A DNA stretch of 64,000 nucleotides. Origin: Candidatus Omnitrophota bacterium (GTDB lineage Bacteria; Omnitrophota; Gorgyraeia; JAHJTE01). A program made the translations under genes and the position numbers. How positions within the stretch are numbered: the first letter of the stretch is position 1; every line of letters begins with the position of its first letter. Where the stretch lies: contig JBFMEB010000009.1 of NCBI GenBank assembly GCA_040753675.1, forward strand, positions 3,407 to 67,406. The letters are read 5' to 3'. Positions 2-62,191 of this stretch are shown one piece after another. The notes below the pieces were generated by a model, which did not search any database, had not been told where the DNA came from, and was given only the letters and a program-made list of their open reading frames with translations.

Positions 2-870
2 GCATTTTCATTTGCCTCAAGTAGCAGGGCAGAGGAGATTGATGTTATTGTTAGAGTCCAGGATGATTTAAGAGATGATTTAGAGAGGATTCGTAATATT
101 CGCCTGGTAAATCGCGATGGCAATCTAATTTATTTAAGCCAATTTGCAAAAATAAATTATGAAAATCAATTTAACGAAGTTTATAGACAAGGTGGCAGAA
201 ATGCCATAAGCATTTTAATTGAACCTGATACTCGTCTGACTGATGAGAGAAGATTAAAAGCAGCAGTCAAAGAATTATGGGAGAAAGAAAAGTTAAATTA
301 CCGAGACCAAGATTTAAAATTTGGCGAGCTTGAACGAGAAGAAGATGAGGCAATGAAAAAGATTGGCTATAATTTTATTCTGGCAATAGTAGCCATTTGG
401 TTTATGACATTTTTAACTCTAAGAGCAAGTATTAGCCAGACATTTGTGGTGCTTTCAAGCATTATGTTCTCAACTTCTGGCGTTTTTGTTGCTTCTATTT
501 TGGTGGGTAGCCCATTTGAATTCTCTACTTTGGTGACAATTTTTGCTTTAGGTGGTTTAGTTGTCAACAATTCTTTGGTCTTACTTTATGAGATTAACCG
601 TTTAAGAGGCCAGGGATTAGAAAAAACTGCCTCAATATTAAATGCCAGCCAGTCAAGGATGAGGCCAATACTACTGACTTCGATAACCACATTGCTTGGA
701 TTCCTGCCTTTGGCAATAGGTATGAGCGGGAATATTCCTTTCTTTACTGCAATGGCTCAGGCCTTGACCTGGGGTTTAGGCATTGCTACTGCCTTAACCC
801 TCTTTATTACTCCTCTTCTTCAAGCAGTAGCTGATGATGTTATAGACTGGTTTACTCGGATTAGGAAAAG
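2..870 (+). other. Domain: RND (AcrB/HAE-type) efflux permease C-terminal half (periplasmic subdomain + TM7-12)
   Basis: The translated motif ...LLYEINRLRGQGLEKTASILNASQSRMRPILLTSITTLLGFLPLAIGMSGN... matches the conserved RND region (AcrB ...[21 protein letters not shown]...). Several TM helices flank it. Confidence 0.6.
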
Positions 871-42800: not shown

Positions 42801-45800
42801 TATTACAAACAGAAGAAGGCCAAAGCTACATCAGTGCACAGTTGAGAGGCCGCGGTCGCCAACTGGCGGGCCTTTCCAACCTCCGTGCCCGTGCAGCGGA
42901 TTACAGCAATTTATTAAAAGGCATCTCGGCATTGCTATTAAGTTCTATCTTAGCTGGGGCAGTGTATGTTCTTGCAAAGCCGATTATGCAGGAATATGCG
43001 AATATGGGCGAAGCAGCTGGCTGGGTGCCGATACGTATGCTATTTACCTTTGCCTTAGTTGCAACAACAGTTTTATTTATCTATCAGTTAGCTAAAGAAA
43101 AGTCAATAAAGACAGTATTTAGACCTAAACTTAAACACAGTGAATTTGGATGGATTGTTTTAGTCGGCGTTTTTGGTTCATTCCTGGCGGCAACTTGTAT
43201 TTACAGCGCGGTTAATCTTAGCACGCCGTTTCTGGCAGCGCTTTTTTATTCACCATTTGTTCCAATAATAGTTGCTTTACTCAAGCATAAACTAAATATT
43301 CCGAAGACAGTATTCTTTGGCGTGCTGTTTGGCGCATCCGGGATTGCGCTTTCAATTATTGCAGGTAAGGGTAGTGCTGAAATAGTTACGTTTAGCGTTT
43401 TAACTCTATTAGGGATTGCTGTAGCATTTATAGGCACTTTCTTTTTCGCAACAAGCTTACTTCTTATTCAACGTAAATTCTCATCTAATCAAGGTATTGC
43501 CTCTACACAGATTTTGTTTTTTAGCTCAATAACTTCTTTGGTTTTGTTTGGTATAGTTTTATTAGTTTCTAAACTTTCCCCTATTTTTGAATGGAAGATT
43601 CTTGGTTTAGGTTTAATGCGCGCTACATTTTTATTATGTAGTATTTATGGAATCCGCCTTTTGCCAGCTTCTTTGGCTGGCGTGTTAGCAGGAACAATTC
43701 CGATATCAGTATTGTTATTTGAGCAGGCAAGTTTAAGCGCCAGCGCTTGGTTTTTAGAGGCGCTTGCCTTGTCAATGGTTCTGTTCAGCGTCTGGCTTCT
43801 TTCGCCGAGAAATGAGAATACGCAATTATTTGAGAGAATTCAGAAGTTAATTAACAAAGGTAGGCAAAATGAAACTTCAGCCTACGAGCTAATGGATGAG
43901 ATTGAAGCTCTGGGTGAGGCTTCTGACGTTGTCCGGGCATTAAAAACCATAAAACCAGCTGATGAATATGAAGAGACAATAATTTTAAATTCAATATTAA
44001 AATTAGGGAGCTTAGAAGATTTAGAAGAGTTGGGAGAGGAAAAAATAAAGGCTTTGATTGAAGAAGGTAAATTTGGCTTTACAGTAACAAACGAAAATAG
44101 CAAAGAAAAGATTTGGATTCATCTCAGAGCTCTGGAGCATATTTTGGCAAGCCATAGTGAAAACTATTTAAAATTAATGAAGTTGTGGAAAAACTTTGTC
44201 TTTTCTAACCAGGTTACTTTAGATCAGATTATTATTTTAATTAGAGAAACTTGTCAAGAAGGTTATCCTATCTATTACAGAGGAGCGAACCACTGGTTTA
44301 CATATGTTTGGTATGTAGCAGACTATTTAGCTAAAAAAACTGGAATACGCCGTATGGAAGCGAGAGTTAGAAAGCGCAAGAAAAATACATCATTTTCAAG
44401 CTTGGCAACTGCCTTACCAACTGCTGGTAAAAACTTCTTGATATTAATTAGAGGAGAGAAATGTTCTAACTTTGAAAATGATCTATTTCCAGCGAGAGTA
44501 AAGAACATATTTGATTTGCGACGGATTAATTTATCCTGGTCGAATATGAGACTGATACTTAAGCGCATAGGTAAGAAACGAACTGGCGGTAGATGGTTTT
44601 GGTCAGGAGCTGCGCCAGAATTAATTGAAAAGGCAATATATTTAACAGCCAGATTTGGTAGGTATGCTGGCAATTTTACAACACCTAAAGGCAGAGATTG
44701 CGCCGTTTGTAGAAACTACCGCTTACCTCTTAAATTGCGATTTAAACTAAGAATTTTTGCTTTAGAGATACTGGTTGCAGAAAATGGATATGTGCACGAT
44801 GCCTTTCCAGTTGGTATCAGACATCTTATCAGAGATACGATTAAATCAATCCCAGAGAAGCTGGGTGGTAGCACTTTAAAAAATAGATTGTTAAAGGTAA
44901 TTTTATTTTCAGCTATTTTGAGTGTGGGGTTATATTACAGTGGAATTTTTTCATTATATTGGTCGTTAAAAGATACAAATCAGTTTTTCTTTAATATAAT
45001 TACAGCGACTATATTTACTGCGCTCTCAGATTTGCTATCAGTGTATCTTTCTAAAAAAAGACAGCATTATCCAATTCTAAGACTACCTTTTGAGCTGGCT
45101 ATAGGTGCTGCCGCGGGTCTTATCTTTACAATCTTTCAGCATTATATTATTGAAGCCTATTTTCCTAAAGACCAATCTTCTTACTTCATTTATTTTGTAC
45201 GGACCTCACTACTATTTTCAATTTCAGTATTCAATATGCTTATATATGCATTTTACAAAAAATTTGAAAAACGGTTATTTAAGATTTTTGACAATGCAAA
45301 TTTAGGAAAAATTATATTTGATGTTCTTGTTTTTAAAGCACTTATTGGTTTATTCAAATATCCTTTCGCTGCAATAGTACTCGATCAGAAAGACGTATTG
45401 GTTTTCTTTTATGGCTTGGATATGCTTAAGGTTGGGGTTATGGTTTGGGCGATAAATAAAGGTGTACCATTTTGGAATTTGTATGACAAGTGGGGCATTA
45501 ACAAAATAATAGCTTCATTAAAGAGACTATTTACTGGGAGAAAAGATGCAAAAGAGAAAGAATTGTCGATTGATATAACTAAAGTTAAATTAGAAGGACA
45601 GGAAGACGTTATTAACAATTTAGCTGAAGCTTTAAGAAGACTATATGAAACAATGCCATTTAGAGCTGCTTATCTTGTTGGTTCAAGGGCAAAAGGCAGA
45701 CAATCAAATTCTTCTGATGTTGACCTAAGGATAGTAATTAATGATAGGTCTGACGAAGCCAGTTTATTAGAAGCAATAAATAAAATATGGTTGGAAATTG

Positions 45801-48800
45801 GTGGCGGCAGGACAAAGTTAGATGCACATATATTCAAACAAAGCGATATTTCATGGTTTATCTGGGAAAAGATTTGCAATTTACTTTCTCTTAATATCGC
45901 AACTTGGCTTTGTATGAAGATTATGGATTATAAGGTTAAGGTCGCACAAGAGAAACCCGTGAATTCTTCCGAAACCGCCAACAACTTTATTCAAAGGCTC
46001 TGGCAACGGATTAGGAGTCATTGTGTTATTGTAAGCTTTGGCTTGGCGATATTGTTATCAGCGCTTTACCATCTTATTCGAGGAGGGACGTTGGGAGAGC
46101 TAGCTCAAGGCTCAATCCTCGCCTTTGCCGCGACAATAGGCATCGCCACAGGGAATTTAGCACAAAGCACTTATTATGATGAGCGAAAAGTAATGAATAT
46201 TCTTGGCGGAAGGATGTGGGTAGAAAGCAGAGAGATGAGTAAGGAGCAGCAATTACAATTAGCGCGAGAAGTTCAAGAGAAAGGCAACCTGGCAGCGTAT
46301 TGGGCGCTTGTTTATTCTTTACAATGGTATGCAGAGGACTTTGCAGCCAAACATAATTCAAAGGATTTGCCTTACGATGATTGTCTCGATGTCTGCATCA
46401 GCGCTATCTATTATGTTGCCAGGATATATAACTCCACCGCAGGTGCTCGCATAGAAACATTGGCTTTCTTAAAATTTAACTCTAACTTAAGGACAGCATG
46501 GAAGGATAGACAAAAGGATATCTCTATCGGAGACTTGTTAGAGGAAATTTATAAGGATAAGGTGGGTGAAAAGAAACATCCCGATGAATCAAGTATTCTG
46601 TTGACTCGTCAGCAAGCAGAAAATTATTTAATTAGACTATTAGAACCTCTTGGATTAGATCCTTTTGGGAGAAACCAAGAGGTATTTATTTTAACAGCTA
46701 TGCATAAGGCTGGAATAATTAAGATGCCTCGCTACCAGATAGCTGCTCGCTATGGTTTAAAACCCTGCAGTATTTCAGATATATGGGAAAAAGTCAGAAC
46801 AAAATTCTTATTTTATTATAAAAGGCATGCCTTGCCGCATATTTGGGAATGTCAGATTAGTAGGAACGGAATTTCCAATAATAGCTCACTGGTGTCAAAT
46901 CAGGCTCAACATCATCATCAGCCGAATATCTGGGAATCTGAACTCGGGCCGACTGATGGGAATAGGTTTGGCAGATGGGCATTTTGGCCGGGGTCAAATT
47001 CAGATGGTAGATTGGAGATGGCAGATGGCAGTTCTCGGTTGTCGGATATGGCTGTGGATGGATTGATTGAAAAAATTGAGAAGGAATCCAAGCCGCCAAA
47101 GAGAGAAGAAGATACGAATAGCCGCAGGCGGCGATTAATAAGATTTTATGAGGCCCTGTTAGCGCTTTTAGCAAAACAAGGTATTTTTGAGGGTCAGACG
47201 CTTATCTATCCTGCTGCTGGCCTTGATATTGTTCCAGGCGCTTATGTTGATACTATAGTAATTAATCGCGATGAGTTATACAGTGCTGCTTCTGGTTTAT
47301 TTATTCGCGATTTTGAAAGATATACTAAGCGATTGAGATATGTTGCTGGAGTGTTTGCAGGAGAATATGGAGGTGAAATGGTTAATGCATTACGGGTAGA
47401 TTTATATAATAGATATATTGGCCCAATAAGAACTTCACATAAAACAGTTCTCCTGAAAGGATTTTTTGATTATGCTGCACAGATTCCCGAAGATTTCTTT
47501 GTTTATCTTGCTGAGCTTGATAGTTTTTTAAATCCAGGTGACAGAATTATATTAATGAATCTTAACGAAGCAAAGCACGTATTAAGCCATTTATTGCCTG
47601 ATAGATATAGAATAGTAGATAGTTGGTTATCCAGAGAACAAAAATCAAAATTGCAAGCTGCATTGGCAAGGATGGTTTCTAGAAGAGCAAACTATAAAAA
47701 CCAGTTCCCGAGTTATTCGAATAAAAAAGATTCATGTTGGCATTTTCTAATGCCAAATACGGTTGTTATTTTAGAGAAAGTAGGCGAGCCGGGTTTAAGA
47801 GGGCATTCTTTAGTCCAGCGACATGGGTTAGAGGGTTTAGATTTTCCTAATCCAATGGCTTCTGAATTTTCTTCTCATCGCGTTGCGAATTGGCCTGGGC
47901 CTGAAGGATGCAACGGCAATGATTACGGCACGCAGGTGCCAGGATCGTGGAGACGTTCAAATAAGCCAACAAGGAGAATTCCTGTATTTAATTGGAATAA
48001 TTGTACTATCTCTTTAGGGGCGGTGGGAATGGAGAAATTTACGTTCTTTGCTCAACCGTTCAACGAGCCAATAACGTATGAGGGACAGGTATCCAAGTCC
48101 CTTGCGAGAAGCAATTTCTTTGAGAGAGGTAATCTGGTTGGTATCCAATCGCAGAGAGATAAGTTTCTTTTTTGGCCTGACGAATTCTACCTTAACTGGT
48201 TTGAGTTCGTCCAAAAATTCAGTGATGCTATGGGTATCCCAGAATCGGCGTTCTTCTTCCAGGGATTTTCCCGACAAAGTCGGGATCCCGCTGACTTTTT
48301 TACCTCTACTGGTGCGGGAAAATTTAGGGATATGTTTAATCTTTTTCATTTTTATTTACCTCCTCGCATATCTTCGACGCCAAGTATATCTGTATATACA
48401 AAAGATGTCAAGAAAAATCTAGGAGAAGACAGGAATCGCGGCTGGGATGGCCCAGATCCAATGGCCTGCGAATTCGGACCTCATCGCGTGGCGAATTGGC
48501 CGGGATATAATTCAGTAAAGGATAAGAGTATTAAGATTTTTAGAAGCGAAGGAAGAATAATAGTCCAGGGCGAACCAGGGGCGTTTAGTGTTTTTGAAGA
48601 AATTTTAGAGTTAGACCAAGTCTGGGTTACTGGGCTTATAAAGAAGTCAATTGAAGTTAGAAATCGAGAAGATTTAGAAGATATGTACGGATATGATAGG
48701 TTGCCACAAGCTTGGATTTTAGATAAAGAAATTAATATTTGGTTTTCAGAAAATCTTTCTGAGCCGTTTATTTGTCTTAATAATAGGGCTATTGCTGTCA

Positions 48801-51550: not shown

Positions 51551-51612
51551 ATGATTACATCTGTGTTTATCTGTCGCATTTGAATCTGTGTTCATCTGTG
51601 GGAGAACTTAGT
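51551..51612. repeat. Word-repeat array: (c/t)atctgt(g/c) x4 at about 10-nt spacing
   Basis: catctgtg, tatctgtc, aatctgtg, catctgtg between the giant-ORF stop and the PilZ-ROK start. Confidence 0.6.
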
Positions 51613-51614
51613 TA

Positions 51615-52925
51615 ATGTATAGTAACTCAATGATTAACAACGAGAAAAGAAAGTTCCAGCGCATAAGCGAGACGCTGCCGGTGCGGTTTAGATTCTCGGA
51701 TAGGCAGGGCTCTGTCTGGTATGATGCAAAGACCCAAAATATCTCTGAGGGTGGTTTGTTTGTTACCAATAATTTGAGCTTAGATGAGATTGGCGATGTT
51801 GTGCATGTTGATTTGAATATTGATAATAGCTTATTGCGAATTATATGTCAGGTTGCTTGGGTAAAGAGAGAAAATGATATAGCAGCTGGCTTTGGTTTAA
51901 AAATAATCCAAATAGAGCAAAAACATAGGCAAATTTTCCTTACCTATATATATAGCAGAGTCAAGCCAAAGAGAATGCCCTGCAAGATAAAATTCTTAAG
52001 GCAGCCCATATCTAAACTGCCAGATAAAGAGCGCAGGTGTTTCCAAATCTTAGATTATATTCGTAGATTTGGTCCGGTTTCAAAGGCAGATATCTGTAAA
52101 GAAATAGATTTAAATGCTGTTAGCGTTGGCAAGTTTATTGAAGACTTTTTAAGATTAGGAATAGTATTTGACTGCGGCCTTGATTTATCCAGCGGCGGCC
52201 GCAGAGCCCAGCTATTTAGAATTAATAAAGATTTTGGGTTTATTTTAGGCATAGATGTTGATAGAGATAGCGGAAATCTCTATGCTTTAGTTGCTAATAT
52301 GGATTTAGAAATCATTATGGAAGAAACAAAACCCTTTGGGAAACAGGATGATATAAAAAATATTTTAATTAATTTCATCAATGCAATTAAATTTAAGATA
52401 GCTAATAATGGCAATAATATCTTAGGAATTGGAATCGGCCTTGGTGAATCGCACACTGACCATAGATTAGCAGATTATTTATCAGAAGCTGTTGGCCTAC
52501 CTGTTATTATTGAGGAGGGTTTTCACTTAGAGTCTTTTGCGCAGAGTTGGATTACCAGGGCATTGTCGAATAAGAATATACTTTACATACATTCCAAACA
52601 TCACTTAAGTTTAATCTTGCAAGGTGATATCTATAAACCTGAGAGAGAAATTGAGAATAAAGTTGAATTAACTCCAATAGATTTGCAGGATAAGGTATTG
52701 GCTTTATTAGAGTTGCTAGGTCCAGATATAGTTTATATTTCAAAGAAAGCTGAGAAAGAGTCCCCTCTTTTGAAACAGGCGCTTACGGAACGCTTGAAGA
52801 GAACTGATATTAGCGAAACTCAGGGTATTAAAGTGCTTAGCTCAGACGTTGACGAGAAAAATGCTATAGCTCTCGGGGCTATAAGCCTGGTGATGAAGGA
52901 GATATTTGTGGCAATCTGCGGATAG
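51615..52925 (+). CDS. PilZ-domain / ROK (NagC/XylR)-family regulator-like fusion protein
   Basis: N-terminus RKFQRISETLPV ... TQNISEGGLFV carries the PilZ RxxxR + DxSxxG motifs. A wHTH (ILDYIRRFGPVSKADICKEIDLNAVSVGKFIEDFLRLGIV) and a ROK-like sugar-kinase fold (ILGIDVD...) follow. The ROK Cys zinc motif is not evident. GGGAGA RBS lies 11 nt upstream of the ATG. Confidence 0.6.
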   Translation: MYSNSMINNEKRKFQRISETLPVRFRFSDRQGSVWYDAKTQNISEGGLFVTNNLSLDEIGDVVHVDLNIDNSLLRIICQVAWVKRENDIAAGFGLKIIQIEQKHRQIFLTYIYSRVKPKRMPCKIKFLRQPISKLPDKERRCFQILDYIRRFGPVSKADICKEIDLNAVSVGKFIEDFLRLGIVFDCGLDLSSGGRRAQLFRINKDFGFILGIDVDRDSGNLYALVANMDLEIIMEETKPFGKQDDIKNILINFINAIKFKIANNGNNILGIGIGLGESHTDHRLADYLSEAVGLPVIIEEGFHLESFAQSWITRALSNKNILYIHSKHHLSLILQGDIYKPEREIENKVELTPIDLQDKVLALLELLGPDIVYISKKAEKESPLLKQALTERLKRTDISETQGIKVLSSDVDEKNAIALGAISLVMKEIFVAICG

Positions 52926-52975
52926 GGCACAGATGATCGCTGATAATTGAACAGATGATCACAGATTGATACATA
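52926..52975. repeat. Word-repeat array, inverted orientation of the same word (cacagatgatc)
   Basis: cacagatgatcgctga...aacagatgatcacagattgat. Together with 51551-51612 it brackets the PilZ-ROK gene as inverted arrays. Confidence 0.55.
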
Positions 52976-52994
52976 GAACGAATTCTTGTATAAT
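52966..52994 (+). promoter_or_regulatory. Sigma70-like promoter for the PilZ gene pair
   Basis: -35 TTGATA (52966-71), 17-nt spacer, TG-extended -10 TGTATAAT (52987-94). About 40 nt upstream of the RBS/ATG at 53034. Confidence 0.4.
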
Positions 52995-53033
52995 GATATT
53001 TAAGATTTAACCTACGATAGCGGGGGATGGATC

Positions 53034-53414
53034 ATGGAAGATAAAAGAAGACATAGCCGTTGGCAGTTGGCAAGTAATCTTTTAGTAAGAGAATCTGGCA
53101 CAGATAGCGAAGGATTCCAGGCAAAAACGAACGATATTAGTATTGGGGGATTATGTTTTCTTTCTCCCAGGATGATTGTCCATCAGACAGAATTAGATTT
53201 TGTTATTGATTTTCCAGATGAGAAAAATTCCATCTTTGCCAAAGGCAAAGTGGTTTGGGAGAAAGAGAAGATCTTGGACGACCAACAACGGGTTATTATG
53301 ACAGGGGTTAGTTTTGATATCCTTCGCGATGCTGATAAGGAAAGAATTTTTAATTATGCCTATAAATTTTGCCGAGAGGATTTGGCAAAAAAATGGTGGC
53401 AGGGGGTGAAATAA
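53034..53414 (+). CDS. PilZ-domain protein (c-di-GMP receptor-like)
   Basis: KRRHSRWQLA and TNDISIGGLCF motifs. GGGGGA RBS. A good sigma70-like promoter lies upstream. Confidence 0.65.
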   Translation: MEDKRRHSRWQLASNLLVRESGTDSEGFQAKTNDISIGGLCFLSPRMIVHQTELDFVIDFPDEKNSIFAKGKVVWEKEKILDDQQRVIMTGVSFDILRDADKERIFNYAYKFCREDLAKKWWQGVK

Positions 53415-53415
53415 A

Positions 53416-53745
53416 ATGCAAGACGAGCGGCGCTTATTTGAGCGGTTGTCAACAAAGTTACCTGCAGTAGTCAGGGCACAGACTGATGGTTCGGTATTCG
53501 AGGCACAAATCCAGGATTTGGCAGCTAAAGGGCTTGGTATAACCAGCAGAGACAGGATTCCTCAAGAAGGCCGGGTGAATTTGAGAATAGAAATTCCTGG
53601 CCAGAAAAATTACCTCAATCTTGTCGGCCAGATTGTCTGGTCAAGAGAGAATTTTCCTGACGGCTGGCGAGCAGGAATTTGGCTAAGGGAACAGTCAACT
53701 GATTTGGTTAGTTTTTCGGTGCTTTTAGATAAGGCTAACCGCTAA
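53416..53745 (+). CDS. PilZ-domain protein
   Basis: ERRLFERLS and IQDLAAKGLGI motifs. The start sits 1 nt after the preceding stop, suggesting translational coupling. Confidence 0.6.
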   Translation: MQDERRLFERLSTKLPAVVRAQTDGSVFEAQIQDLAAKGLGITSRDRIPQEGRVNLRIEIPGQKNYLNLVGQIVWSRENFPDGWRAGIWLREQSTDLVSFSVLLDKANR

Positions 53746-53749
53746 AACG

Positions 53750-53800
53750 CAAAATCACTAATCGCAAAAACGCAAAATTATTATCTTTGCGGTTGCAAAA
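53750..53800. repeat. Word-repeat array (acgcaaaat / ttgcgg, direct + inverted)
   Basis: aacgcaaaatcactaatcgcaaaaacgcaaaattattatctttgcggttgcaaaag. Confidence 0.45.
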
Positions 53801-53804
53801 GTGC

Positions 53805-53833
53805 TTGACCCGCCTAAAGATTTATGGTAAATT
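53805..53833 (+). promoter_or_regulatory. Candidate promoter upstream of the GH94 gene
   Basis: -35 TTGACC (53805-10), 17-nt spacer, TGgTAAATT extended -10. Confidence 0.3.
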
Positions 53834-53892: not shown

Positions 53893-53935
53893 ATTATTTA
53901 TCAGTGATCATCTGTTCAGTTATCTGTGATCATCT
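53893..53935. repeat. Word-repeat array (atcatctgt x2) upstream of GH94
   Basis: tcagtgatcatctgttcagttatctgtgatcatctgtg. Confidence 0.5.
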
Positions 53936-53965
53936 GTGCTAAAAAGAAAGGAGCAAGTTAAAAAT

Positions 53966-56407
53966 ATGAAGTACGGCCACTTTAGTAAAGACAACACAGA
54001 GTTTATCATCACTGACCCGCTAACACCCCGTCCCTGGATTAATTATTTGACTAACGAAGAATATGGTTCAGTTATTTCTCACTGCGCCGGCGGATATAGT
54101 TTTTTTAAAGACTGCCGCTCTGACAGAGTCCTACGCTGGCTTCCGGAAAATTGGCAAACAGACAGGCCAGGGCGATATATTTATGTTAAGCAGAAAGCAG
54201 AAAGCAGAAAGCAGAAAGCAAAAGTTTGGTCCTTGACTTACCAGCCGGTGAGAGAAAAATTAGATTTTTATGAAGCAAGGCATGGATTAGGTTATACACA
54301 AATCAAAACAAAATATAACGGGACTTCTTCCGATATTACTTATTTTGTCCCTGTCCATGACCATTGTGAAATCTGGTTAGTAAATATCAAAAACGAAACT
54401 AAGCAAACCAAACATTTAGAACTCTTTCCTTATTGCGAATGGCTTTTAGGAGATTATCATTTGGAACTACGCTATCGCAATATTCTGAATTTATATAATC
54501 GTGTCTGGTTTGATAAGCAGCACTCTGCGATTTTTGCCAAAAAGACGGCTAGTTGGGGAGATATGGACATCCAGCCATTTGCCTATCTGGCATTTTTTGC
54601 TTCATCATTAAAAGTAGACGGCTATGTAACTCAAAAATATCCTTTCTTAGGCAGGCATAATACCTGTGAACGTCCGCAAATGATATTCGAAGATAATTTT
54701 AAAAATATTGATTTCTGTTCCGGAGAAGATGCAATAGGTTGCTTTAGGCATAAACTCACTTTAGCCCCCGGAAAAAATAAAGAATTTGTAATCATCTTAG
54801 GTCAGACCGAGGGCCAAACCACTGTTTCAAAATTGCTTACTAAATACCGCAATTTAAAAAATTCAAAGAAGGAATTAGCAGCGGTAAAATCCTTGTGGCG
54901 GATGAGGATTTTAGATAATATCTGGATACAGACTGCGGATAAAGACTTTGATTTTATGATGAATATCTGGGTTAAGTATCAGCTTTATATTTGTAATTTA
55001 TGGAGCCGCTCGCCGAGTTACTACCATGAAGGTAGTGGAGGAAGAGGCTACCGGGATTCTTGCCAGGATTCAGAAAGCCTTTGTTCGATAAATAGCGAGT
55101 TTACCCGTAAGCGCATATTGCATATTGCCTCTTTAATCCGCAAAGACGGCACTTCTGCTCCGGGTTGGGGCGATACTACTGGGCCGGCAGGCCATAGGCC
55201 GAATAAAGACCATCAGATTTGGCTTACCGCAACAGTGCATGCCTACATTAGGGAGACAGGCGATAAATCTATACTTAGCGAATATGTGCCATATTTGAAA
55301 GATAGATGGATTGGCGGATGGGAAGTAGATGTAAATTATAAAGGCGGGGCTACCACCGACGGAGAAGGAACGCTTTTAGAGCACTTAGAAAAGAATTTAA
55401 ATTTCTGCTTTAATGACGTTGGCGAGAGGGGTTTTCCCTTAATTGGCCATGCGGATTGGAATGATGCTATTGATGCAGCAGGCAAAGAGCACAAAGGCGA
55501 TAGCGTCTGGTTGGCGCAGGCTTTGGTAAGAAGTTTGCGGCTTTTTGCCGACATCTGCGAGCTTATCGGTGAGAAAGGCAAAAAAGAAGAGTTCTTGCAT
55601 AAAGCAAAGACAATGAGCGAGCGGATAAACGATGTTGGCTGGGACGGTGCCTGGTATAAGCGGGGCTTTACTGATGATGGCACAGTTTACGGCAGTAAAG
55701 TAAATAATGAAGGAAAAATTTTTATCAATACCCAGGCCTGGGCGCTTTTATCCGGGGTGAGCGATGACGGCGGTAAAACCAAACAGGTTGTTGATTCGAC
55801 AATGAAATATTTAGACGGCAAGCACGGTTTTGCTTTATTCTACCCCGCCTACAGTAAATTTAATCCTAAACTCGGACGTATCAGTATGTTTTCCGAAGGC
55901 ACAAAAGAAAATGCAGCAGTGTTTTGCCACGCTGCAACATTTATGATTGTTGCATTATTATCAGAAGGCTTTGGAAATATTGGCTATCAGTCAATGCGAA
56001 AACTTATGCCAAATTTACAGCAAGATTATGAATTATATAAGACTGAGCCATATGTCTGGTCTGAATATATTGTGGGGCCCCAGCATCCTTACCTATATGG
56101 AGAAGGAGCGTTTACCTGGATTACTGGCACAGCTGGATGGACTTTTATGGCAGCAACTGAGTGGCTGTTAGGCGCGCGCAGAGATTTTGATGGCTTAAGA
56201 ATAGACCCTTGTATTCCCAGTCACTGGAAACATTGCCGTATTAGAAGGCCTTTTCGAGGAGCAATATACGATATTGAGATTGAGAATCCAAGAGGAAAAC
56301 AAAAAGGCGTAAGCGCTGTTTATGTTAACGGCGAGTTGATAGACGGGAATTTAATAAAACCAGGACAAGCTGGAAAGACTTATAAAGTTAGAGTGGTGAT
56401 GGGATGA
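53966..56407 (+). CDS. GH94 glycoside phosphorylase (cellobiose/cellodextrin/beta-1,2-glucan phosphorylase-like)
   Basis: N-terminus KYGHFSKDNTEFIITDPLTPRPWINYL is typical of GH94. GHADWNDAIDAAG carries the catalytic DWND motif. About 810 aa. The ATG at 53966 has an AAAGGAG RBS; the track's GTG at 53936 is an alternative start. An in-frame heptamer tandem lies at 54191-54218. Confidence 0.75.
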   Translation: MKYGHFSKDNTEFIITDPLTPRPWINYLTNEEYGSVISHCAGGYSFFKDCRSDRVLRWLPENWQTDRPGRYIYVKQKAESRKQKAKVWSLTYQPVREKLDFYEARHGLGYTQIKTKYNGTSSDITYFVPVHDHCEIWLVNIKNETKQTKHLELFPYCEWLLGDYHLELRYRNILNLYNRVWFDKQHSAIFAKKTASWGDMDIQPFAYLAFFASSLKVDGYVTQKYPFLGRHNTCERPQMIFEDNFKNIDFCSGEDAIGCFRHKLTLAPGKNKEFVIILGQTEGQTTVSKLLTKYRNLKNSKKELAAVKSLWRMRILDNIWIQTADKDFDFMMNIWVKYQLYICNLWSRSPSYYHEGSGGRGYRDSCQDSESLCSINSEFTRKRILHIASLIRKDGTSAPGWGDTTGPAGHRPNKDHQIWLTATVHAYIRETGDKSILSEYVPYLKDRWIGGWEVDVNYKGGATTDGEGTLLEHLEKNLNFCFNDVGERGFPLIGHADWNDAIDAAGKEHKGDSVWLAQALVRSLRLFADICELIGEKGKKEEFLHKAKTMSERINDVGWDGAWYKRGFTDDGTVYGSKVNNEGKIFINTQAWALLSGVSDDGGKTKQVVDSTMKYLDGKHGFALFYPAYSKFNPKLGRISMFSEGTKENAAVFCHAATFMIVALLSEGFGNIGYQSMRKLMPNLQQDYELYKTEPYVWSEYIVGPQHPYLYGEGAFTWITGTAGWTFMAATEWLLGARRDFDGLRIDPCIPSHWKHCRIRRPFRGAIYDIEIENPRGKQKGVSAVYVNGELIDGNLIKPGQAGKTYKVRVVMG

Positions 56408-56914
56408 CCTTATAGAACTTATCTATAATTAAACCCTAAATTCAAAACTCTAAACTCTAAATAAACTCAAATGTCCAAAACCCCAAATTCAAAACCATAT
56501 GATTTAGGAGCCAGGACCCTTAAATTTGCTAAAAGAGTAAGGGATTATGTAAAAGCTTTACCAAAGACATTGGCTAACATAGAAGATGCTAAGCAGCTTA
56601 TTAAAGCTTCTGGTTCAGTTGGTGCCAATTATATAGAAGCTGAAGAGGCTTTGAGTAAAAAAGATTTTATAATGAGAATAAAAATTTCAAGAAAAGAGGC
56701 AAAAGAAAGCAGATACTGGTTAGAATTAACCGAGCACAGAGAAGATCAGAAGAGTGAGCAGGAGGCTTTAATTAATGAAGCGGTAGAATTAACAAAAATT
56801 TTTGGTTCAATAGTTGAACGATCCAAATAATTCTTTTGAGTTTTAGATTTTGCGTTTTGTATTTGTTTAGGATTTAGGTTTAGGATTTAGAGTTTATATT
56901 TAAAAAGAATAGAT
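56408..56914. mobile_element. Inverted-repeat-bounded cassette carrying the four-helix-bundle gene (IVS/MITE-like)
   Basis: The left arm 56415-56470 (aaaccctaaattcaaaactctaaactctaaat...) is nearly the reverse complement of the right arm 56845-56900 (...atttaggtttaggatttagagttta). A miniature ORF-less copy lies at 60297-60480. Confidence 0.5.
56471..56830 (+). CDS. Four-helix-bundle protein (23S rRNA intervening-sequence protein family, TIGR02436/PF05635-like)
   Basis: DLGARTLKFAKRVRDYVKALPKT ... GSVGANYIEAEEALSKKDFIMRIKISRKEAKESRYWLELT matches the family pattern (..IGANIAEG...S.KDF..KL.IA.KEA.ET.YWL.L). Flanked by long inverted repeats. Confidence 0.7.
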   Translation: MSKTPNSKPYDLGARTLKFAKRVRDYVKALPKTLANIEDAKQLIKASGSVGANYIEAEEALSKKDFIMRIKISRKEAKESRYWLELTEHREDQKSEQEALINEAVELTKIFGSIVERSK

Positions 56915-58210
56915 ATGAAGAGATTGTCTACATTGTTTATTATTGTTTGTTTTTCATTGAGTCTTATTGGCTGTGTTGCAGAAGATAGTGCTTCAGCCAA
57001 AAAAACCATAACCGTTTGGCATTGGATGACTGACCGGGAGGCGGCCTTTCAAGAATTAGCTAAACGCTACGAAGATGATACCGGCATAAAGGTTAATTTT
57101 GAACTCTATGCCCCTTCTGATATCTATAGCCAAAAGGTGCGCGCTGCTGCTCAAGGGATAACCTTGCCAGATATATATGGGCTTCTGGGCGAAAAGAGAG
57201 ATTTTGCCGCATTTATAAAAAGTGGCCACGTAGCAGATTTAAGTGAGCCAATGTTTGAGGAAAATGGCGCTTGGAAAGAAAGTTTCTTTTCTAAAGCTCT
57301 CGAGGTGGTGGAATTCAAGGAGAATAATGCCTATGGCATAAAGCCAGGCATCTATGGTGCTCCCATTGATATAATGAACATCCAGATGCTTTACAATAAA
57401 AAATTATTTAAAAGGGGAGGCCTTGACCCAGAGAGGCCACCCTTAAACTGGAAGGAATTTATTGAGGATATCGAAAGCCTAAAAAAAGTGGGCGCGCCGG
57501 GTTTGGTTTCAGGGTGGGGAGAGATTTGGATGATTGATTGCTTTGCCTCCAATTATGCATTTAATATTATGGGGGAAGATAAGGTTATCGCTACTTTAAA
57601 AGGAGAGGTACCTTATACGGATCCGGATTGGATTAAGGTCTTTTCATTATTTAAAGAACTGGCAGATAAAGATGCCTTAGCATCCGGCGTTGTGATAATG
57701 AAAAACAAAGTCGCTGAGCAGACTTTTGCTAATGAAAGAGCGGCATTTGCATTTAATGGTTCATGGTGTATTAATGTTTATGAGGGGATGAATCCTAATT
57801 TAGAGTATGCTCCATTTTTACCGCCAAAAGTAAATATGAAAAAACCTATGTATATTTGGGGAGGAGGCTCTTCATTCTCATTTCTGGTAAATGATAGATC
57901 TACTAAGAAATTAGAGGCAATAAAGTTTTTAAAGTGGTTAACCGATAAAGACCAACAGGCATATTTATCGAATGAAACTAAGAACTTACCTTCCAACAAA
58001 TTTGCGCTTGCCCAAATACCTAAGATTTTGGCTCAGTTTGCAGCGGGTATGGATAACACTACTCATCCTAGCATTTGGCCAGTGAGTGAGTCTTCGATTG
58101 TGATTGAGGCAATGGGTAAAGGCATTCAGTCAATATTGATTGGAGAAAAGACTCCTCAAGAGTTAGGAGAAGAATTGCAGGCTTTAAAAGAGAAAGAGTT
58201 ATTTAAGTAG
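56915..58210 (+). CDS. ABC transporter extracellular sugar-binding lipoprotein (family 1 SBP)
   Basis: Signal peptide with lipobox LIGC. The body is SBP-like (TITVWHWMTDREAAFQELAKRYEDDTGIKVNFE...). Confidence 0.7.
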   Translation: MKRLSTLFIIVCFSLSLIGCVAEDSASAKKTITVWHWMTDREAAFQELAKRYEDDTGIKVNFELYAPSDIYSQKVRAAAQGITLPDIYGLLGEKRDFAAFIKSGHVADLSEPMFEENGAWKESFFSKALEVVEFKENNAYGIKPGIYGAPIDIMNIQMLYNKKLFKRGGLDPERPPLNWKEFIEDIESLKKVGAPGLVSGWGEIWMIDCFASNYAFNIMGEDKVIATLKGEVPYTDPDWIKVFSLFKELADKDALASGVVIMKNKVAEQTFANERAAFAFNGSWCINVYEGMNPNLEYAPFLPPKVNMKKPMYIWGGGSSFSFLVNDRSTKKLEAIKFLKWLTDKDQQAYLSNETKNLPSNKFALAQIPKILAQFAAGMDNTTHPSIWPVSESSIVIEAMGKGIQSILIGEKTPQELGEELQALKEKELFK

Positions 58211-58227
58211 TTTCTAGTTAGTTCTGA

Positions 58228-58345
58228 AAAAATATTTTTTAACGCAGATATACGCAAATCTAACGCAGATTTTCGCAGATTTCTCTACTAAATATCTGCG
58301 ACCATTTGCGTTACATCGGCGAGAATCTGCGTTCAAGAAAAGGTT
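58228..58345. repeat. Imperfect palindromic word array (cgcagat x4 then atctgcg / tttgcgtta)
   Basis: taacgcagatatacgcaaatctaacgcagattttcgcagatttc ... atatctgcgaccatttgcgttacatcggcgagaatctgcgtt, between the SBP gene and the first permease. Confidence 0.55.
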
Positions 58346-58373
58346 TTTTAGAAATCTCTTCTAAATTAGACGC

Positions 58374-59405
58374 TTGATGATATTTAAAAATATCTATGTA
58401 AAATCAATCATAGTTACCTCCTGTATCATTTTAGCAGAATTAATTTATCAAAAATTCCACAACCTCAGATTCATATCTCCTCTGTTAATATTATTGGCAG
58501 TCTTGATTTCTATTATCCTCGTCATTAAAATTATTTCAGCAAGACAATTCAAAAGTTTTCTTTTTATAGTTCCTGCCTTAGCAATTTTTTCAATATTTTA
58601 TATTTATCCTTTTATAAAAGTTTTACAACTGGCTCACTACAGCTGGGATGGAATATTACCTACAATGAAATTCGTGGCCTTTTATAACTTTTTAGAGGTC
58701 TTAAAAGATAAAGTCTGGTGGCAGTCGATGTTCAACGCCGGTTACATTACCTTTATCGCATTGACCTTCCAGAATGCCCTGGCTTTGATTTTGGCATTAG
58801 CCTGCGATAGGCAAATGAAGGCAGGGAATTTCTACCGCGTTATATTTTTTATACCTCCGGTATTGTCAGAGGTCGTGGTGGGTCTGGTATGGCAGTGGCT
58901 GTACAACGCAGATTACGGTCTGTTAAACCACTGGCTTTACACAATAGGTTTCCCTAATCTTGCCAGGTCTTGGCTGTCTGATCCAAAGACCGCTCTTACC
59001 TGCGTGGCTATCGTGCATTCCTGGAAAGGTTTTGGCTGGGGATTTGTAATTCTCTTGGCTGGATTACAAACTATACCCCGCCAGCTTTATGAAGCTGCAC
59101 GTGTTGACGGAGCGAATACTTGGCAGGTATTTAAAAATATTACCGCGCCTTTGATGATACCCGTATTCGTGCTGGTGGCGATACTGACAGTGCTAGGTTC
59201 TATGCAGTCGTTTGTTTTAATACTTACTATGACAGACGGCGGGCCGGCATTTCATACCGAGGTGCCGGTAACCAGAATTCTAACTTCTATGATCGGCTCT
59301 TCTAGATTTGGGTATGCTTGTTCACAGAGTATAGTATTCGGTGCAATCCTCCTTGCGATTTCCTTTATACAGAAGAGGCTCTCCCAAAATATGAGGCAGG
59401 CATAA
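58374..59405 (+). CDS. Carbohydrate ABC transporter permease (MalF/UgpA-like)
   Basis: Six TM helices. EAA loop YEAARVDGANTWQVFKNITAPLM. Confidence 0.7.
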   Translation: MMIFKNIYVKSIIVTSCIILAELIYQKFHNLRFISPLLILLAVLISIILVIKIISARQFKSFLFIVPALAIFSIFYIYPFIKVLQLAHYSWDGILPTMKFVAFYNFLEVLKDKVWWQSMFNAGYITFIALTFQNALALILALACDRQMKAGNFYRVIFFIPPVLSEVVVGLVWQWLYNADYGLLNHWLYTIGFPNLARSWLSDPKTALTCVAIVHSWKGFGWGFVILLAGLQTIPRQLYEAARVDGANTWQVFKNITAPLMIPVFVLVAILTVLGSMQSFVLILTMTDGGPAFHTEVPVTRILTSMIGSSRFGYACSQSIVFGAILLAISFIQKRLSQNMRQA

Positions 59406-60244
59406 TGCTTAATTTTAGCGTAAAGAAAACAACTACAAACATCCTAGTTCATCTTTTATTGATTTCAGTGTCGATTACCTGTCTTTTCCCGCTATTGTGG
59501 ATGTTTGGTTCTTCTTTAAAGACTCAAGGCACGGTTTTTTCTGACTTGAGCATAATTCCTCAACATCCGCATTTCGAGAATTATATAAAAGCCTGGACTG
59601 ACGGGGGTTTCGGCAGGTATTTCTTTAATAGTTTAATATACACCATCGCTGTAGTGTTAGGTATAGTTTTGGTATCGTCGCTGGCCGCATTTGCGTTTTC
59701 GCGATTGGAATTTCCTGGAAGAAACGCATTTTTTATCATGTTTCTTGCCGCGATGATGATACCGCTGCCGGGCAGTTTTGTTCCTTTATATGTGCTTATG
59801 GTGAAACTTCATTTGGTCAATACGCGCTTAGGCTATTGTTTATGCCTTATTAACGTGGGGCTGTCTTTTAGCATATTTTTGCTTAAGACGTATTTTGATA
59901 AGATGCCTAAAGAGTTAGAGGATGCCGCGAGAATTGACGGTTGCAACAGATTGGGAATTTATAGACACGTGGCTCTGCCCTTTGCCAGGCCGGCTCTTGC
60001 AGTGGTAGTGGTTTTTAACGCCCTGAATGTTTGGAACGAATATGTGCTGGCTTTGATAATATTTAGTAGTAAAGACCTGATGCCTCTTCAACGTGGGTTG
60101 ATGATGTTTCGGGGAGAATTCCTGACTAATTACCCACTTTTGATGGCAGGGCTTACTATAGCGGCCTTACCTATAATTATCTTATACCTGTTGATGCAGA
60201 AGTATATTGTCAAGGGAGCAACTTCTCAGGTGGTATTTCCATAA
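59405..60244 (+). CDS. Carbohydrate ABC transporter permease (MalG/UgpE-like)
   Basis: The start ATG overlaps the upstream stop (TAATG). EAA loop LEDAARIDGCNRLGIYRHVALPFARPAL. The track start at 59318 is an upstream in-frame extension overlapping the previous gene. Confidence 0.7.
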   Translation: MLNFSVKKTTTNILVHLLLISVSITCLFPLLWMFGSSLKTQGTVFSDLSIIPQHPHFENYIKAWTDGGFGRYFFNSLIYTIAVVLGIVLVSSLAAFAFSRLEFPGRNAFFIMFLAAMMIPLPGSFVPLYVLMVKLHLVNTRLGYCLCLINVGLSFSIFLLKTYFDKMPKELEDAARIDGCNRLGIYRHVALPFARPALAVVVVFNALNVWNEYVLALIIFSSKDLMPLQRGLMMFRGEFLTNYPLLMAGLTIAALPIIILYLLMQKYIVKGATSQVVFP

Positions 60245-60296: not shown

Positions 60297-60480
60297 ATTA
60301 CATAAATTTATATAAACTCTAAACACTAAATTCTAAATCCTAAATAAATCCAAAATTCAAAACATAAAACTCAAAACCTCATTTGACCTCTCAGGCATAA
60401 AATGTCTTCATACGCTTTTGGATTTTAGGTTTTGGACATTTGAGTTTGTTTAGAGTTTAGGGTTTCGGATTTAGGGTTTC
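60297..60480. repeat. Miniature ORF-less inverted copy of the four-helix-bundle cassette (both IR arms + 5' gene remnant)
   Basis: 60297-60350 matches the reverse complement of the cassette's right arm. 60425-60480 matches the reverse complement of its left arm. The middle retains the reverse complement of tcaaATGtccaaaacc, i.e. the MSKT start of the gene, then a stop. Confidence 0.55.
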
Positions 60481-60589
60481 TAATTTTTACATTTTACATT
60501 GTCATTTTGATATTTAATTTTTGATATTTGCATTTATAAACCAAATGCAATTGTCATTTAGTTGACAAGGCACCATAAGAAAGGTATTT

Positions 60590-60622
60590 AATCTTGCTTA
60601 CGCCAAGATTAATTGTTATAAT
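60590..60622 (+). promoter_or_regulatory. Candidate promoter + palindromic operator upstream of the MFS gene
   Basis: -35 TTGCTT (60594-99), 17-nt spacer, extended -10 TGtTATAAT (60614-22). The palindrome aatcttgcttacgccaagatt (60590-60610) overlaps the -35. A second TTGACA lies at 60562. Confidence 0.35.
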
Positions 60623-60664: not shown

Positions 60665-62191
60665 ATGACGACACACCATGTCACCGCCCCCCAAGACCGC
60701 ATTCCTTTTTTTCAGAAATTCATATACAGTATAGGAGCATTTGCGAATACTGCCCAGGCAGCTTTTATCGGACAGATGGTCATTGTTTTAAACCTGGGGT
60801 TAGGCGTAAATCCCGCCTTAGTGGGTTTAGTCGGAGCCCTACCCCGTATTATTGACGCCATATCTGATCCTATAACTGGATACTTTTCTGATAATCTACG
60901 GACCCGTTGGGGACGCCGAAGGCCGCTTATATTCTTTGGCGCTGTTACCGGCGGAATTACTTACGCATTGATGTATCAGCTCTATAAGGGCCATAGCGAA
61001 GGTTTCTATGTCTGGTATTTCGGAATATTCCAGGCCCTTTATTTTATTGGGTTTACCTGTTTTTCCATTCCCTGGATAGCGCTGGGATACGAAATGACCC
61101 CTGATTATCATGAGCGCACACGCTTGCAGGGGGCTAGTAATTTTGTTGGCCAATTACCCTGGCTTATCGCTCCTTGGTGCTGGGCCATTATGCACAACCA
61201 GAACTGGTTCCCAGATATAGTTTACGGCGGAAGAGTTCTTGCTATCATTATCGGCAGTGTTATCATCGGTTGTGGTATCCTTCCTGCTATTTTTAATAAA
61301 GAATACTTCCACACCTTACCAAAACCTGATGTTAGGGGCGCTTGGAGCGTGACGAAAGACTTCTTTGCTGGGGGTTTCGTAACTCTTAAATGTAGGCCAT
61401 TCTTGAAGCTGTGCCTATTTACCTTACTGATCTTTGGCGGATTCATGTGCGCTTCAGCTTTTACCATCTACGTTGTTTTCTTCTATGTCTTTGGAAATGC
61501 TCCAGTGCTTGATCAAGCCTATGCAAACGGCGGTCGCCTGCTCGGTATCTATGGGACTTTTTCTGCTATTTGTACTATGGGAGTCATTTATTTAACCACA
61601 TGGCTATCTAGAAGGCTCGGCAAGAGAAATACATTTTTTATAACTCTGCCTCTTTCAATCATCGGTTACGCTTTGAAGTGGATTGGTTATAATCCTGCGC
61701 ATCCGTACTTACTTTTGGTCGCCGCTCCGTTCATCTCATTCGGTCTGGGATCACTTTTCACATTAGTCAGCTCCATGGTAGCTGATGTATGTGACCTTGA
61801 TGAACTTACTACCGAAACACGCAGAGAAGGCATGTTTGGTGCTATTTACTGGTGGATGGTAAAATTAGGAGTCGCGCTTTCATCGTTTATCTCCGGAATT
61901 CTACTGAATGCAACTGGTTTCAAAGTTACATTAGGGCTTGCTCAAACAACGCAAACATTATTAAATTTGCGGCTGTGCGATATCGGTATCCCGATTGTGA
62001 CCACTTTAATCGCCATTTTTGTTATTATGACTTTTGATATCACAGAAGCTAAAGCCTGTGAAATCCGTGTCCATGTAGAGCGCAGAAGAGGAGAAAGACG
62101 AGTAGAAGAAGAAAGACGCAGAGAAGAAAGACGAGTAGAAGAAGAAAGACGAGTAGAAGAAGAAAGACGAGAAGAAGAAAGACGGGAGTGA
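60665..62191 (+). CDS. MFS transporter, glycoside-pentoside-hexuronide (GPH):cation symporter family
   Basis: GYFSDNLRTRWGRRRPLIFFGAV is the GPH DRT..RWGRRRP signature. 12 TM helices. GGAGA RBS. The C-terminal ERRVEEERR low-complexity tail is encoded by an 18-nt tandem repeat at about 62090-62188, so the functional C-terminus is uncertain. Confidence 0.7.
   Translation: MTTHHVTAPQDRIPFFQKFIYSIGAFANTAQAAFIGQMVIVLNLGLGVNPALVGLVGALPRIIDAISDPITGYFSDNLRTRWGRRRPLIFFGAVTGGITYALMYQLYKGHSEGFYVWYFGIFQALYFIGFTCFSIPWIALGYEMTPDYHERTRLQGASNFVGQLPWLIAPWCWAIMHNQNWFPDIVYGGRVLAIIIGSVIIGCGILPAIFNKEYFHTLPKPDVRGAWSVTKDFFAGGFVTLKCRPFLKLCLFTLLIFGGFMCASAFTIYVVFFYVFGNAPVLDQAYANGGRLLGIYGTFSAICTMGVIYLTTWLSRRLGKRNTFFITLPLSIIGYALKWIGYNPAHPYLLLVAAPFISFGLGSLFTLVSSMVADVCDLDELTTETRREGMFGAIYWWMVKLGVALSSFISGILLNATGFKVTLGLAQTTQTLLNLRLCDIGIPIVTTLIAIFVIMTFDITEAKACEIRVHVERRRGERRVEEERRREERRVEEERRVEEERREEERRE

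Follow-up and report, generated by a model that had tools for sequence, protein, structure and literature searches.

We describe here a 64,000-nt stretch of DNA from a Candidatus Omnitrophota bacterium (contig JBFMEB010000009.1 of assembly GCA_040753675.1, positions 3,407-67,406 of the forward strand; this whole stretch is hereafter called the window) and, in particular, the first of three consecutive PilZ genes (genes 1, 2 and 3) that lie between a giant open reading frame (ORF) and a set of glycan genes. Judging by its alignments and its modelled fold, the gene 1 protein is a PilZ domain joined to a winged helix-turn-helix (wHTH) on a degenerate ROK scaffold, and the helix-turn-helix is real. 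We propose that this protein acts as a transcription regulator of the adjacent glycan-scavenging genes that responds to cyclic di-GMP (c-di-GMP), with c-di-GMP replacing sugar as the effector, and we give this reading a probability of about one half. The overall interpretation of an earlier note on this DNA, which had seen in gene 1 a PilZ domain fused to a ROK-family regulator and, thereby, a combined sensor of c-di-GMP and sugar, is partly supported. The three genes and the parts of gene 1 are the following:

51615..52925, forward strand: gene 1, PilZ-wHTH-degenerate ROK-like protein of 436 amino acids, MEW6008669.1 (Pfam, phmmer, AlphaFold2/Foldseek, motif scan)
51642..51953, forward strand: PilZ domain of gene 1, residues 10-113, with R12xxxR16 and N42ISEGG (Pfam, AlphaFold2, 21 family members)
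52023..52223, forward strand: wHTH of gene 1, residues 137-203, with the invariant wing SSGGRR (phmmer to Lmo0178, AlphaFold2)
52227..52922, forward strand: truncated ASKHA/ROK-like domain of gene 1, residues 205-436 (alignment, Foldseek, motif scan)
53034..53414, forward strand: gene 2, single-domain PilZ protein of 126 amino acids (Pfam, orthologue alignment)
53416..53745, forward strand: gene 3, single-domain PilZ protein of 109 amino acids, beginning 1 nt past the gene 2 stop (Pfam, orthologue alignment)

The presence of three consecutive PilZ genes at these positions, as the earlier note had it, is borne out by a search with Pfam PF07238 that had been set beforehand as a check: all three ORFs match above the gathering threshold of 22.5 bits, with 51.0 bits for gene 1 (E 2e-13, residues 10-113), 44.9 bits for gene 2 (E 1.6e-11) and 40.2 bits for gene 3 (E 4.6e-10). 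The same name, 'PilZ domain-containing protein', is given by NCBI to the three small proteins (MEW6008669.1-671.1). Both c-di-GMP-binding signatures had been claimed for all of them. The first one, RxxxR, is indeed found in each (RKFQR, R12-R16, in gene 1; RRHSR in gene 2; RLFER in gene 3), while the second, defined by Galperin and Chou as [D/N]hSxxG with a conserved hydrophobic residue at h, is found in genes 1 and 2 (NISEGG, starting at N42, and DISIGG) and fails in gene 3, which has DLAAKG, without the canonical Ser. Since this Ser is missing in gene 3 and in all six of its orthologues (the position is Ala or Gly in 6/6), c-di-GMP binding by gene 3 is uncertain. In genes 1 and 2, the alignments indicate that the motifs are intact and conserved in the family. 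R12 and R16 are at least 90% conserved among 21 fusion proteins. When 1.84 billion cluster representatives were scanned exhaustively with HMMER, about 16 clusters (at 50% identity) gave a match spanning both the PilZ domain and the ROK-like part, and RxxxR and [DN]h[S/G/A]xxG are kept in every full-length fusion member.

The AlphaFold2 model of gene 1 (built from 16 homologues, with a mean predicted local distance difference test score, pLDDT, of 77.6 and a predicted TM-score of 0.67) contains a canonical PilZ barrel, namely a six-stranded beta-barrel (strands 22-27, 36-41, 47-54, 62-69, 72-86 and 89-100) followed by a C-terminal helix (102-115), modelled at pLDDT 80-91. A phmmer search of the three PilZ domains against the PDB gave no significant match, and we therefore read them as divergent. 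Across six loci the PilZ proteins form three orthologous groups, with 31-70% identity within groups (full-length members) and 12-29% between them, and there are conserved extras proper to a group (a C-terminal KKWWxGL helix in gene 2, a WRAG insert in gene 3). Because of these separate groups, their low mutual identity and their own conserved extras, the three proteins are, on sequence grounds, not recent duplicates.

The wHTH that had been proposed for gene 1 is confirmed by its alignment to the Listeria monocytogenes ROK repressor Lmo0178 and by its invariant wing. In a phmmer search against the PDB, residues 139-277 align to Lmo0178 with E 8e-15, the wHTH falling on the N-terminus of that protein (residues 17-154), and residues 145-345 align to TM1224 with E 1e-8; the Pfam evidence on the wHTH itself is a weak MarR_2 match (E 0.06), and HTH_24 or MarR matches are found in two orthologues, P0009 and L006. 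The model shows the three helices (137-152, 157-164 and 168-181), the wing strands and, C-terminal to them, a two-lobed ASKHA domain. Its best Foldseek match in the PDB is operator-bound Lmo0178 (5F7Q, E 9e-18, TM-score 0.53-0.62), and the top matches are Lmo0178, TM1224, Mlc and MecR2 (E 9e-18 to 1e-14); ROK repressors or kinases account for the top 49 of the 50 PDB matches listed. Across the family, the wing SSGGRR is invariant (S192, G194, G195, R196) and the region of the recognition helix largely so. MecR2 of Staphylococcus aureus (4IJA, E 3e-16), which lacks a PilZ domain, deserves attention among these matches. It is a ROK-derived protein that has lost the canonical ROK function and acts as an anti-repressor by protein contact, and gene 1 could likewise work by binding proteins, as an adaptor or an anti-repressor that c-di-GMP recruits to a second regulator or to part of a transporter. 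The rank of MecR2 among the structural matches and the failure to find a shared operator (see below) speak for such a role; nevertheless, lineages with no more than about 22-30% identity to one another have kept the wing GGRR and the recognition-helix region unchanged or almost unchanged, which argues for a maintained contact with DNA, and we consider the adaptor role quite improbable.

As to the fusion with a ROK-family regulator, the ancestry and the fold hold, by phmmer and Foldseek, and the family assignment does not. The search with Pfam PF00480 (gathering threshold 22.9 bits), also set as a check, gave no match to the gene 1 protein at E<=0.1, and the NCBIfam models for NagC (27 bits, cut-off 650) and Mlc (24 bits, cut-off 530) stay far below the scores required. 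Neither the CxCGxxGCxE zinc motif nor the Gly-rich ROK signature was found in gene 1 by regular-expression scan and alignment with canonical ROK proteins; in the same alignment the ENDAN loop is replaced (EEGFH stands in its place) and about 85-95 residues, spanning the canonical sugar-binding segment, are deleted. As these motifs are absent and the sugar-binding region is deleted, the sugar-sensing half of the protein looks dismantled, and a sugar sensor in gene 1, at least as far as the sequence tells, is not credible. With these losses, the combined sensor of the earlier note is not supported. A dual sensor of this kind, in which the ROK-like domain still binds an oligosaccharide (such as cellobiose or chitobiose) in a non-canonical pocket and integrates this signal with c-di-GMP, could appeal to the two-lobed ASKHA cleft that is kept in the model and to the residues lining it, which are conserved in the close clade (e.g., EEGFHLESFAQ and GDIYKPE); additionally, in basal fusions such as L006, P0052 and P0060 the ROK domain is still long, and these proteins could indeed sense both signals. 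For gene 1 itself, however, the canonical sugar- and zinc-binding segments are deleted, the Gly-rich and ENDAN elements are replaced, no Pfam ROK match is obtained and the segment that spans the deletion (342-355) is modelled at pLDDT below 50, so that we regard this reading, too, as improbable.

The distribution of these losses suggests an order of events. The regular expression for the zinc motif matches 24 of the 25 canonical ROK proteins retrieved (P0016-P0040) and none of P0001-P0015 or P0041-P0060; the motif is thus absent from all the fusions and also from their nearest PilZ-less relatives (P0012-P0015), and therefore the loss of zinc predates the PilZ fusion. The deletion of about 85-95 residues, together with the replacement of the ENDAN and Gly-rich loops, is found in the clade of the window (P0001-P0008) and in its nearest relatives (P0009, P0010, P0041 and P0044). 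The longer fusions (L006, P0011, P0048, P0052, P0060) retain more of the ROK domain, and that of L006 passes the Pfam ROK model at 73.8 bits.

Gene 1 heads a series of genes that the earlier note had largely named. The last 12.4 kb of the window are a single co-directional series after the giant ORF, in the order giant ORF, PilZ-ROK, PilZ, PilZ, GH94, IVP-type gene, substrate-binding protein (SBP), two permeases, GPH symporter and TPR/GH2_C, of which the downstream part is:

53966..56407, forward strand: GH94 phosphorylase, cellobiose/chitobiose-phosphorylase type (Pfam, PDB)
56471..56830, forward strand: 23S-rRNA-IVP-type four-helix-bundle gene (Pfam, 53.6 bits)
56915..58210, forward strand: sugar ABC substrate-binding lipoprotein, SBP_bac_1/8 (Pfam)
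58374..59405, forward strand: ABC permease 1, BPD_transp_1 (Pfam)
59405..60244, forward strand: ABC permease 2, BPD_transp_1, whose likely ATG overlaps the upstream stop (TAATG) (Pfam)
60665..62191, forward strand: GPH/MFS_2 glycoside:cation symporter with an Arg/Glu-rich C-terminal tail (Pfam)
62199..64000, forward strand: signal-peptide-like N-terminus, TPR and GH2_C-type TIM-barrel glycosidase, cut by the window end

The identities given earlier for these genes (GH94, SBP, two permeases without an ATPase, GPH symporter, glycoside hydrolase) agree with the Pfam and PDB matches, and no ABC ATPase gene was found in the rest of the window; what the list had omitted is the IVP-type gene (56471-56830) and the giant ORF (2-51550). 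The GH94 protein matches the Pfam catalytic domain with 335.3 bits and the supersandwich domain with 218.8 bits, its best PDB match is cellobiose phosphorylase (3QDE, E 5e-137, residues 11-823) and it also aligns to chitobiose phosphorylase (1V7V, E 2e-112). As the PDB alignments begin at residue 11 of the ORF started at GTG 53936, the true start is probably ATG 53966. The IVP-type gene, which lies between GH94 and the SBP gene within CTAAA-type inverted repeats, is present at this position in L001 and absent in L002, L003, L007 and L036, and is probably an insertion. The TPR/GH2_C ORF has orthologues in L002 and L003. The Arg/Glu-rich tail of the symporter (ERRRGERRVEEERRREERRVEEERRVEEERREEERRE) is encoded by 15/18-nt tandem repeats (62056-62188).

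The tie of the regulator to GH94 and the transporters, which the earlier note had drawn from this one locus, is found again in other loci, with linkage in nine of the ten loci examined, two of them with a different gene order. The full order recurs in the metagenomic loci L001, L002, L003/L004, L007 and L036, and partly in L035, over which the identity of gene 1 goes from 77% down to 32%; among GTDB species representatives there is only one related locus (L006), and a metagenome scan gave only two full-length fusions. In the close clade, where upstream DNA is available, gene 1 directly follows a giant or very long ORF in five loci, and in L036 three small ORFs stand between them. The distant fusions L006 and L038 are directly downstream of a GH94 gene and, in the DNA available, have neither an adjacent giant gene nor small PilZ genes, and in a cluster that is otherwise alike, a GH116 gene precedes a sister ROK regulator without PilZ. 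By its gene neighbourhood, the regulator is thus tied to the beta-glycoside catabolic genes themselves and not only to the giant gene.

The gene directly upstream nevertheless calls for a different explanation to be weighed:

2..51550, forward strand: giant ORF of at least 17,183 codons, open at the 5' window end, directly upstream of gene 1

This ORF takes up 80% of the window, has no in-frame stop between positions 2 and 353 and is, in its Pfam content, a mosaic of AcrB C-terminus, GFO_IDH_MocA, glycogen-phosphorylase-like, starch synthase GT5/GT1, FBPase-like, guanylate kinase, AA_kinase, GNAT, NTP_transf_2 and EamA segments, with LysM and YkuD near the C-terminus. It belongs to the type of Omnitrophota giant gene known from West-Roberts et al. 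(2023, bioRxiv 10.1101/2023.11.21.568195), who report that one or more small pilZ homologues come right after most such genes (their Fig. 5C), that solute-binding proteins, transporters and glycosyl hydrolases come further downstream, and that GGDEF domains, which they propose as partners of PilZ, are present in many giant proteins. The present locus has the same layout (pilZ genes directly after the giant gene, then SBP transporters and glycoside hydrolases), which is thus already published, and the interpretation of the earlier note had left out the giant gene to which the pilZ genes are tied in this literature. West-Roberts et al. link pilZ to the GGDEF domains of giant proteins, whereas no GGDEF match was obtained in the giant ORF at E<=1e-3 over 17,065 amino acids scanned, the N-terminus of the ORF lying outside the window; they make no mention of a ROK or HTH fusion and interpret the sugar genes as serving the degradation of prey cell walls. 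The PilZ-wHTH-ROK fusion protein appears to be undescribed: full-text searches of the literature on PilZ with ROK, and the PilZ survey paper, yielded no account of it. The JGI automatic annotation of one orthologue does give both halves ('PilZ / predicted NBD/HSP70 family sugar kinase').

Following West-Roberts et al., the PilZ trio could serve the giant gene or its secretion apparatus, with c-di-GMP controlling the export, assembly or activity of the giant protein and the sugar genes being adjacent only incidentally. Besides the published association and the position of gene 1 behind giant or very long ORFs in the close clade, this would fit the region between the giant ORF and gene 1, where no promoter is evident, so that the two may be co-transcribed. 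Against it stand the GGDEF domain that was not detected in the giant ORF and the distant PilZ-ROK fusions that keep their GH94 neighbour away from any giant gene or small PilZ genes. Moreover, regulators with a ROK-type wHTH typically control adjacent sugar operons, Lmo0178 being an example. We consider a role directed at the giant gene unlikely, though it deserves more weight than the adaptor and the non-canonical sugar sensor.

The regulatory DNA of the series contains two promoter-like sites and one candidate operator:

52966..52994, forward strand: promoter-like TTGATA-17-TATAAT upstream of gene 2 (11/12 matches)
53805..53833, forward strand: promoter-like TTGACC-17-TAAATT with TG extension, upstream of GH94
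60588..60612, no strand assigned: perfect palindrome TTAATCTTG-N7-CAAGATTAA (9-7-9), candidate symporter operator, unique in the window

The TATAAT box upstream of gene 2 is found at the same place in six loci, and the GH94 site is conserved in six loci as cTTGACCc...ATTTrTGGTAaAxT. The palindrome overlaps the -35 box (TTGCTT) of the TGtTATAAT promoter of the symporter (60588-60622), and copies of it are found in L007, where it is conserved with 1 mismatch, and in L003, where it is degraded with 4 mismatches.

Several observations weigh against gene 1 as the regulator of these genes. A ROK operator common to the regions upstream of the GH94, SBP and symporter (MFS) genes, the search for which had been set as a check, was not found: an enumeration of exact palindromes (half-sites of 5-6 nt, spacers of 0-10) in the intergenic DNA of five close loci gave none present in four or more of them. 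The only good palindrome is the candidate operator at the symporter, which sits at one promoter and cannot, from its sequence, be tied to gene 1. The repeats that surround the PilZ genes vary between close relatives and are absent in L007 and L035. The window shows no diguanylate cyclase, and the giant ORF gave no GGDEF match. Degenerate ROK proteins can, by the analogy of MecR2, work without DNA. Finally, gene 1 is strictly accompanied by the giant gene in the close clade, which is also compatible with a function aimed at the giant gene.

Our proposal of a c-di-GMP-responsive regulator would involve the following steps. A ROK-type repressor already without zinc would have acquired a PilZ domain at its N-terminus, and the sugar-binding core of the ROK domain would have disappeared afterwards. 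With its intact RxxxR and NhSxxG motifs, the PilZ domain would bind c-di-GMP and shift relative to the wHTH through the conserved linker (residues 114-136), which would alter the DNA binding of the wHTH dimer, the residual ASKHA scaffold serving only to dimerise the protein. The putative targets are the GH94 gene, the sugar ABC importer that lacks an ATPase, the GPH symporter and the secreted TPR/GH2_C glycosidase. Genes 2 and 3 would be separate, anciently diverged c-di-GMP adaptors with a promoter of their own and other partners, and the whole module may be a fixed appendage of the Omnitrophota giant gene, which points to a deployment of the giant protein that is coordinated with the uptake of the glycans released.

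Parts of this scheme have counterparts in known proteins. Lmo0178 (5F7P/5F7Q/5F7R), the best match in both sequence and structure for residues 139-436 of gene 1 (wHTH and ROK), is a repressor of a sugar operon, with structures bound to the operator and to the inducer according to the PDB entry titles; in contrast to gene 1, its ROK domain is complete, its inducer is a sugar and it lacks a PilZ domain. In MrkH of Klebsiella pneumoniae, an activator, a PilZ domain is likewise the c-di-GMP sensor within a DNA-binding regulator, but the PilZ domain is C-terminal, DNA is bound by a PilZ-like N-terminal domain and there is neither a wHTH nor an ASKHA scaffold. The Borrelia burgdorferi PilZ protein PlzA is linked to carbohydrate use. 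Its binding of DNA and RNA depends on c-di-GMP (PMC9915621), and its xPilZ-PilZ architecture, in contrast to gene 1, includes no wHTH or ROK part.

The intergenic DNA of the series is also rich in repeats and in predicted stems, for which no Rfam match (riboswitch or other known RNA) was obtained at gathering score or at E<=1:

51553..51600, forward strand: ATCTGTG-type repeat arm upstream of gene 1, complementary to 52927-52971 (duplex dG -38.6, z -6.1)
52927..52971, no strand assigned: inverted-repeat arm complementary to both 51553-51600 and 53895-53939 (45 nt, 87%)
53895..53939, no strand assigned: inverted-repeat arm just 5' of the GH94 ribosome-binding site
53746..53800, no strand assigned: CGCAAAA-type hairpin (weak fold, z -2.2)
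58220..58350, forward strand: CGCAGAT-repeat imperfect hairpin of 130 nt between the SBP gene and permease 1 (dG -47, z -6.7)
51553-51600 / 52927-52971 / 53895-53939 and 56431-56502 / 56834-56890 / 60310-60376 / 60408-60479: cassette arms

The ATCTGTG/GATCATCTG repeats are enriched on both sides of gene 1 and again before GH94. The ATCWGYGATCATCTG repeats were counted at 10 sites, where 2.5 would be expected, and are found again in L001, L002, L003 and L036; L035, the closest relative, has other hairpin repeats in their place. As a possible ROK operator they were rejected, since they form complementary arms and are absent from L007 and L035, and we judge them to be hairpin or stem elements. 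The arm at 52927-52971 pairs with that at 53895-53939 with dG -62.0 (z -13.1). More generally, long-range complementary arms, each with its own repeat family, bracket the cassettes of the series (gene 1; genes 2 and 3; the IVP-type gene; the SBP and permease genes), and an outer pair encloses the IVP-type and ABC genes together; the duplexes have dG values from -35 to -87 kcal/mol and z from -3.6 to -16.4, while cross-family controls have z near 0. These arms could be processing stems of the RNase III type or traces of insertion. Small genes appear to insert into the loops of intergenic hairpins, because the IVP-type gene lies inside an arm bracket and is absent in L002/L003/L007/L036 and because, in L001, CGCAAAA-type arms flank an inserted PDDEXK_3 gene (L001 12781-13240); in the window the same arms adjoin without a gene. 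The CGCAGAT hairpin resembles, in its position, the repetitive extragenic palindromic elements that stabilise malE mRNA in E. coli.

Three other kinds of sequence were noticed. A motif just past the giant-gene stop and upstream of gene 1, AAATGATTACA(C), is conserved in four loci. Four related loci have a multi-hairpin 5'-leader before the gene 2 orthologue (in L001 also before those of gene 3 and GH94), with conserved joints (GYCYGAAUUU ... UUCAAUUCGCAC ... GUGCUCAUUGAAGGAGG) and variable stems; it is absent from the window and has no Rfam family match. Tandem repeats of period 7 are found at gene boundaries and, in frame, within the giant ORF, where they give peptides such as SSIQHPASSIS and may mark former gene boundaries; they include an AAGCAGA repeat (x5.4) inside GH94 and GATACTC and CTAGCAT arrays across the signal-peptide-like N-terminus of the last ORF. 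Their positions are:

window 51551-51566; L002 ~9826; L003 ~9820; L035 ~9870: motif AAATGATTACA(C)
L001 11600-11785, 12290-12453, 13650-13827; L002 11290-11460; L007 11345-11497; L035 11345-11599: multi-hairpin leader
23973-24075, 27273-27360, 39148-39229, 47001-47031, 54188-54224, 56430-56496, 56866-56896, 62212-62300: heptanucleotide repeats

Taking gene 1 again as a c-di-GMP-responsive regulator, a more specific history can be put forward, although we hold it as tentative and less probable than the proposal that it extends. In this history, a zinc-less ROK regulator of a beta-glucoside cluster would have acquired PilZ and the giant-gene clade would then have deleted the sugar pocket, which would amount to a swap of effectors; the neighbouring glycan genes would answer to no signal other than c-di-GMP and would do so in concert with two dedicated PilZ adaptors, and the cistrons would, additionally, be parted by the cassette-specific long-range RNA stems.

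The practical impact of these results is limited, as the layout is already published and the function of gene 1 is predicted from sequence. If the proposed reading is true, however, the PilZ-wHTH-ASKHA architecture would join the short list of PilZ-based transcription factors (MrkH and, arguably, PlzA) and would be a clear case in which the effector of a ROK repressor has changed from a metabolite to a second messenger. There would also be a concrete way into the regulation of the locus always found with the giant genes in the uncultivated, possibly predatory or epibiotic, Omnitrophota.

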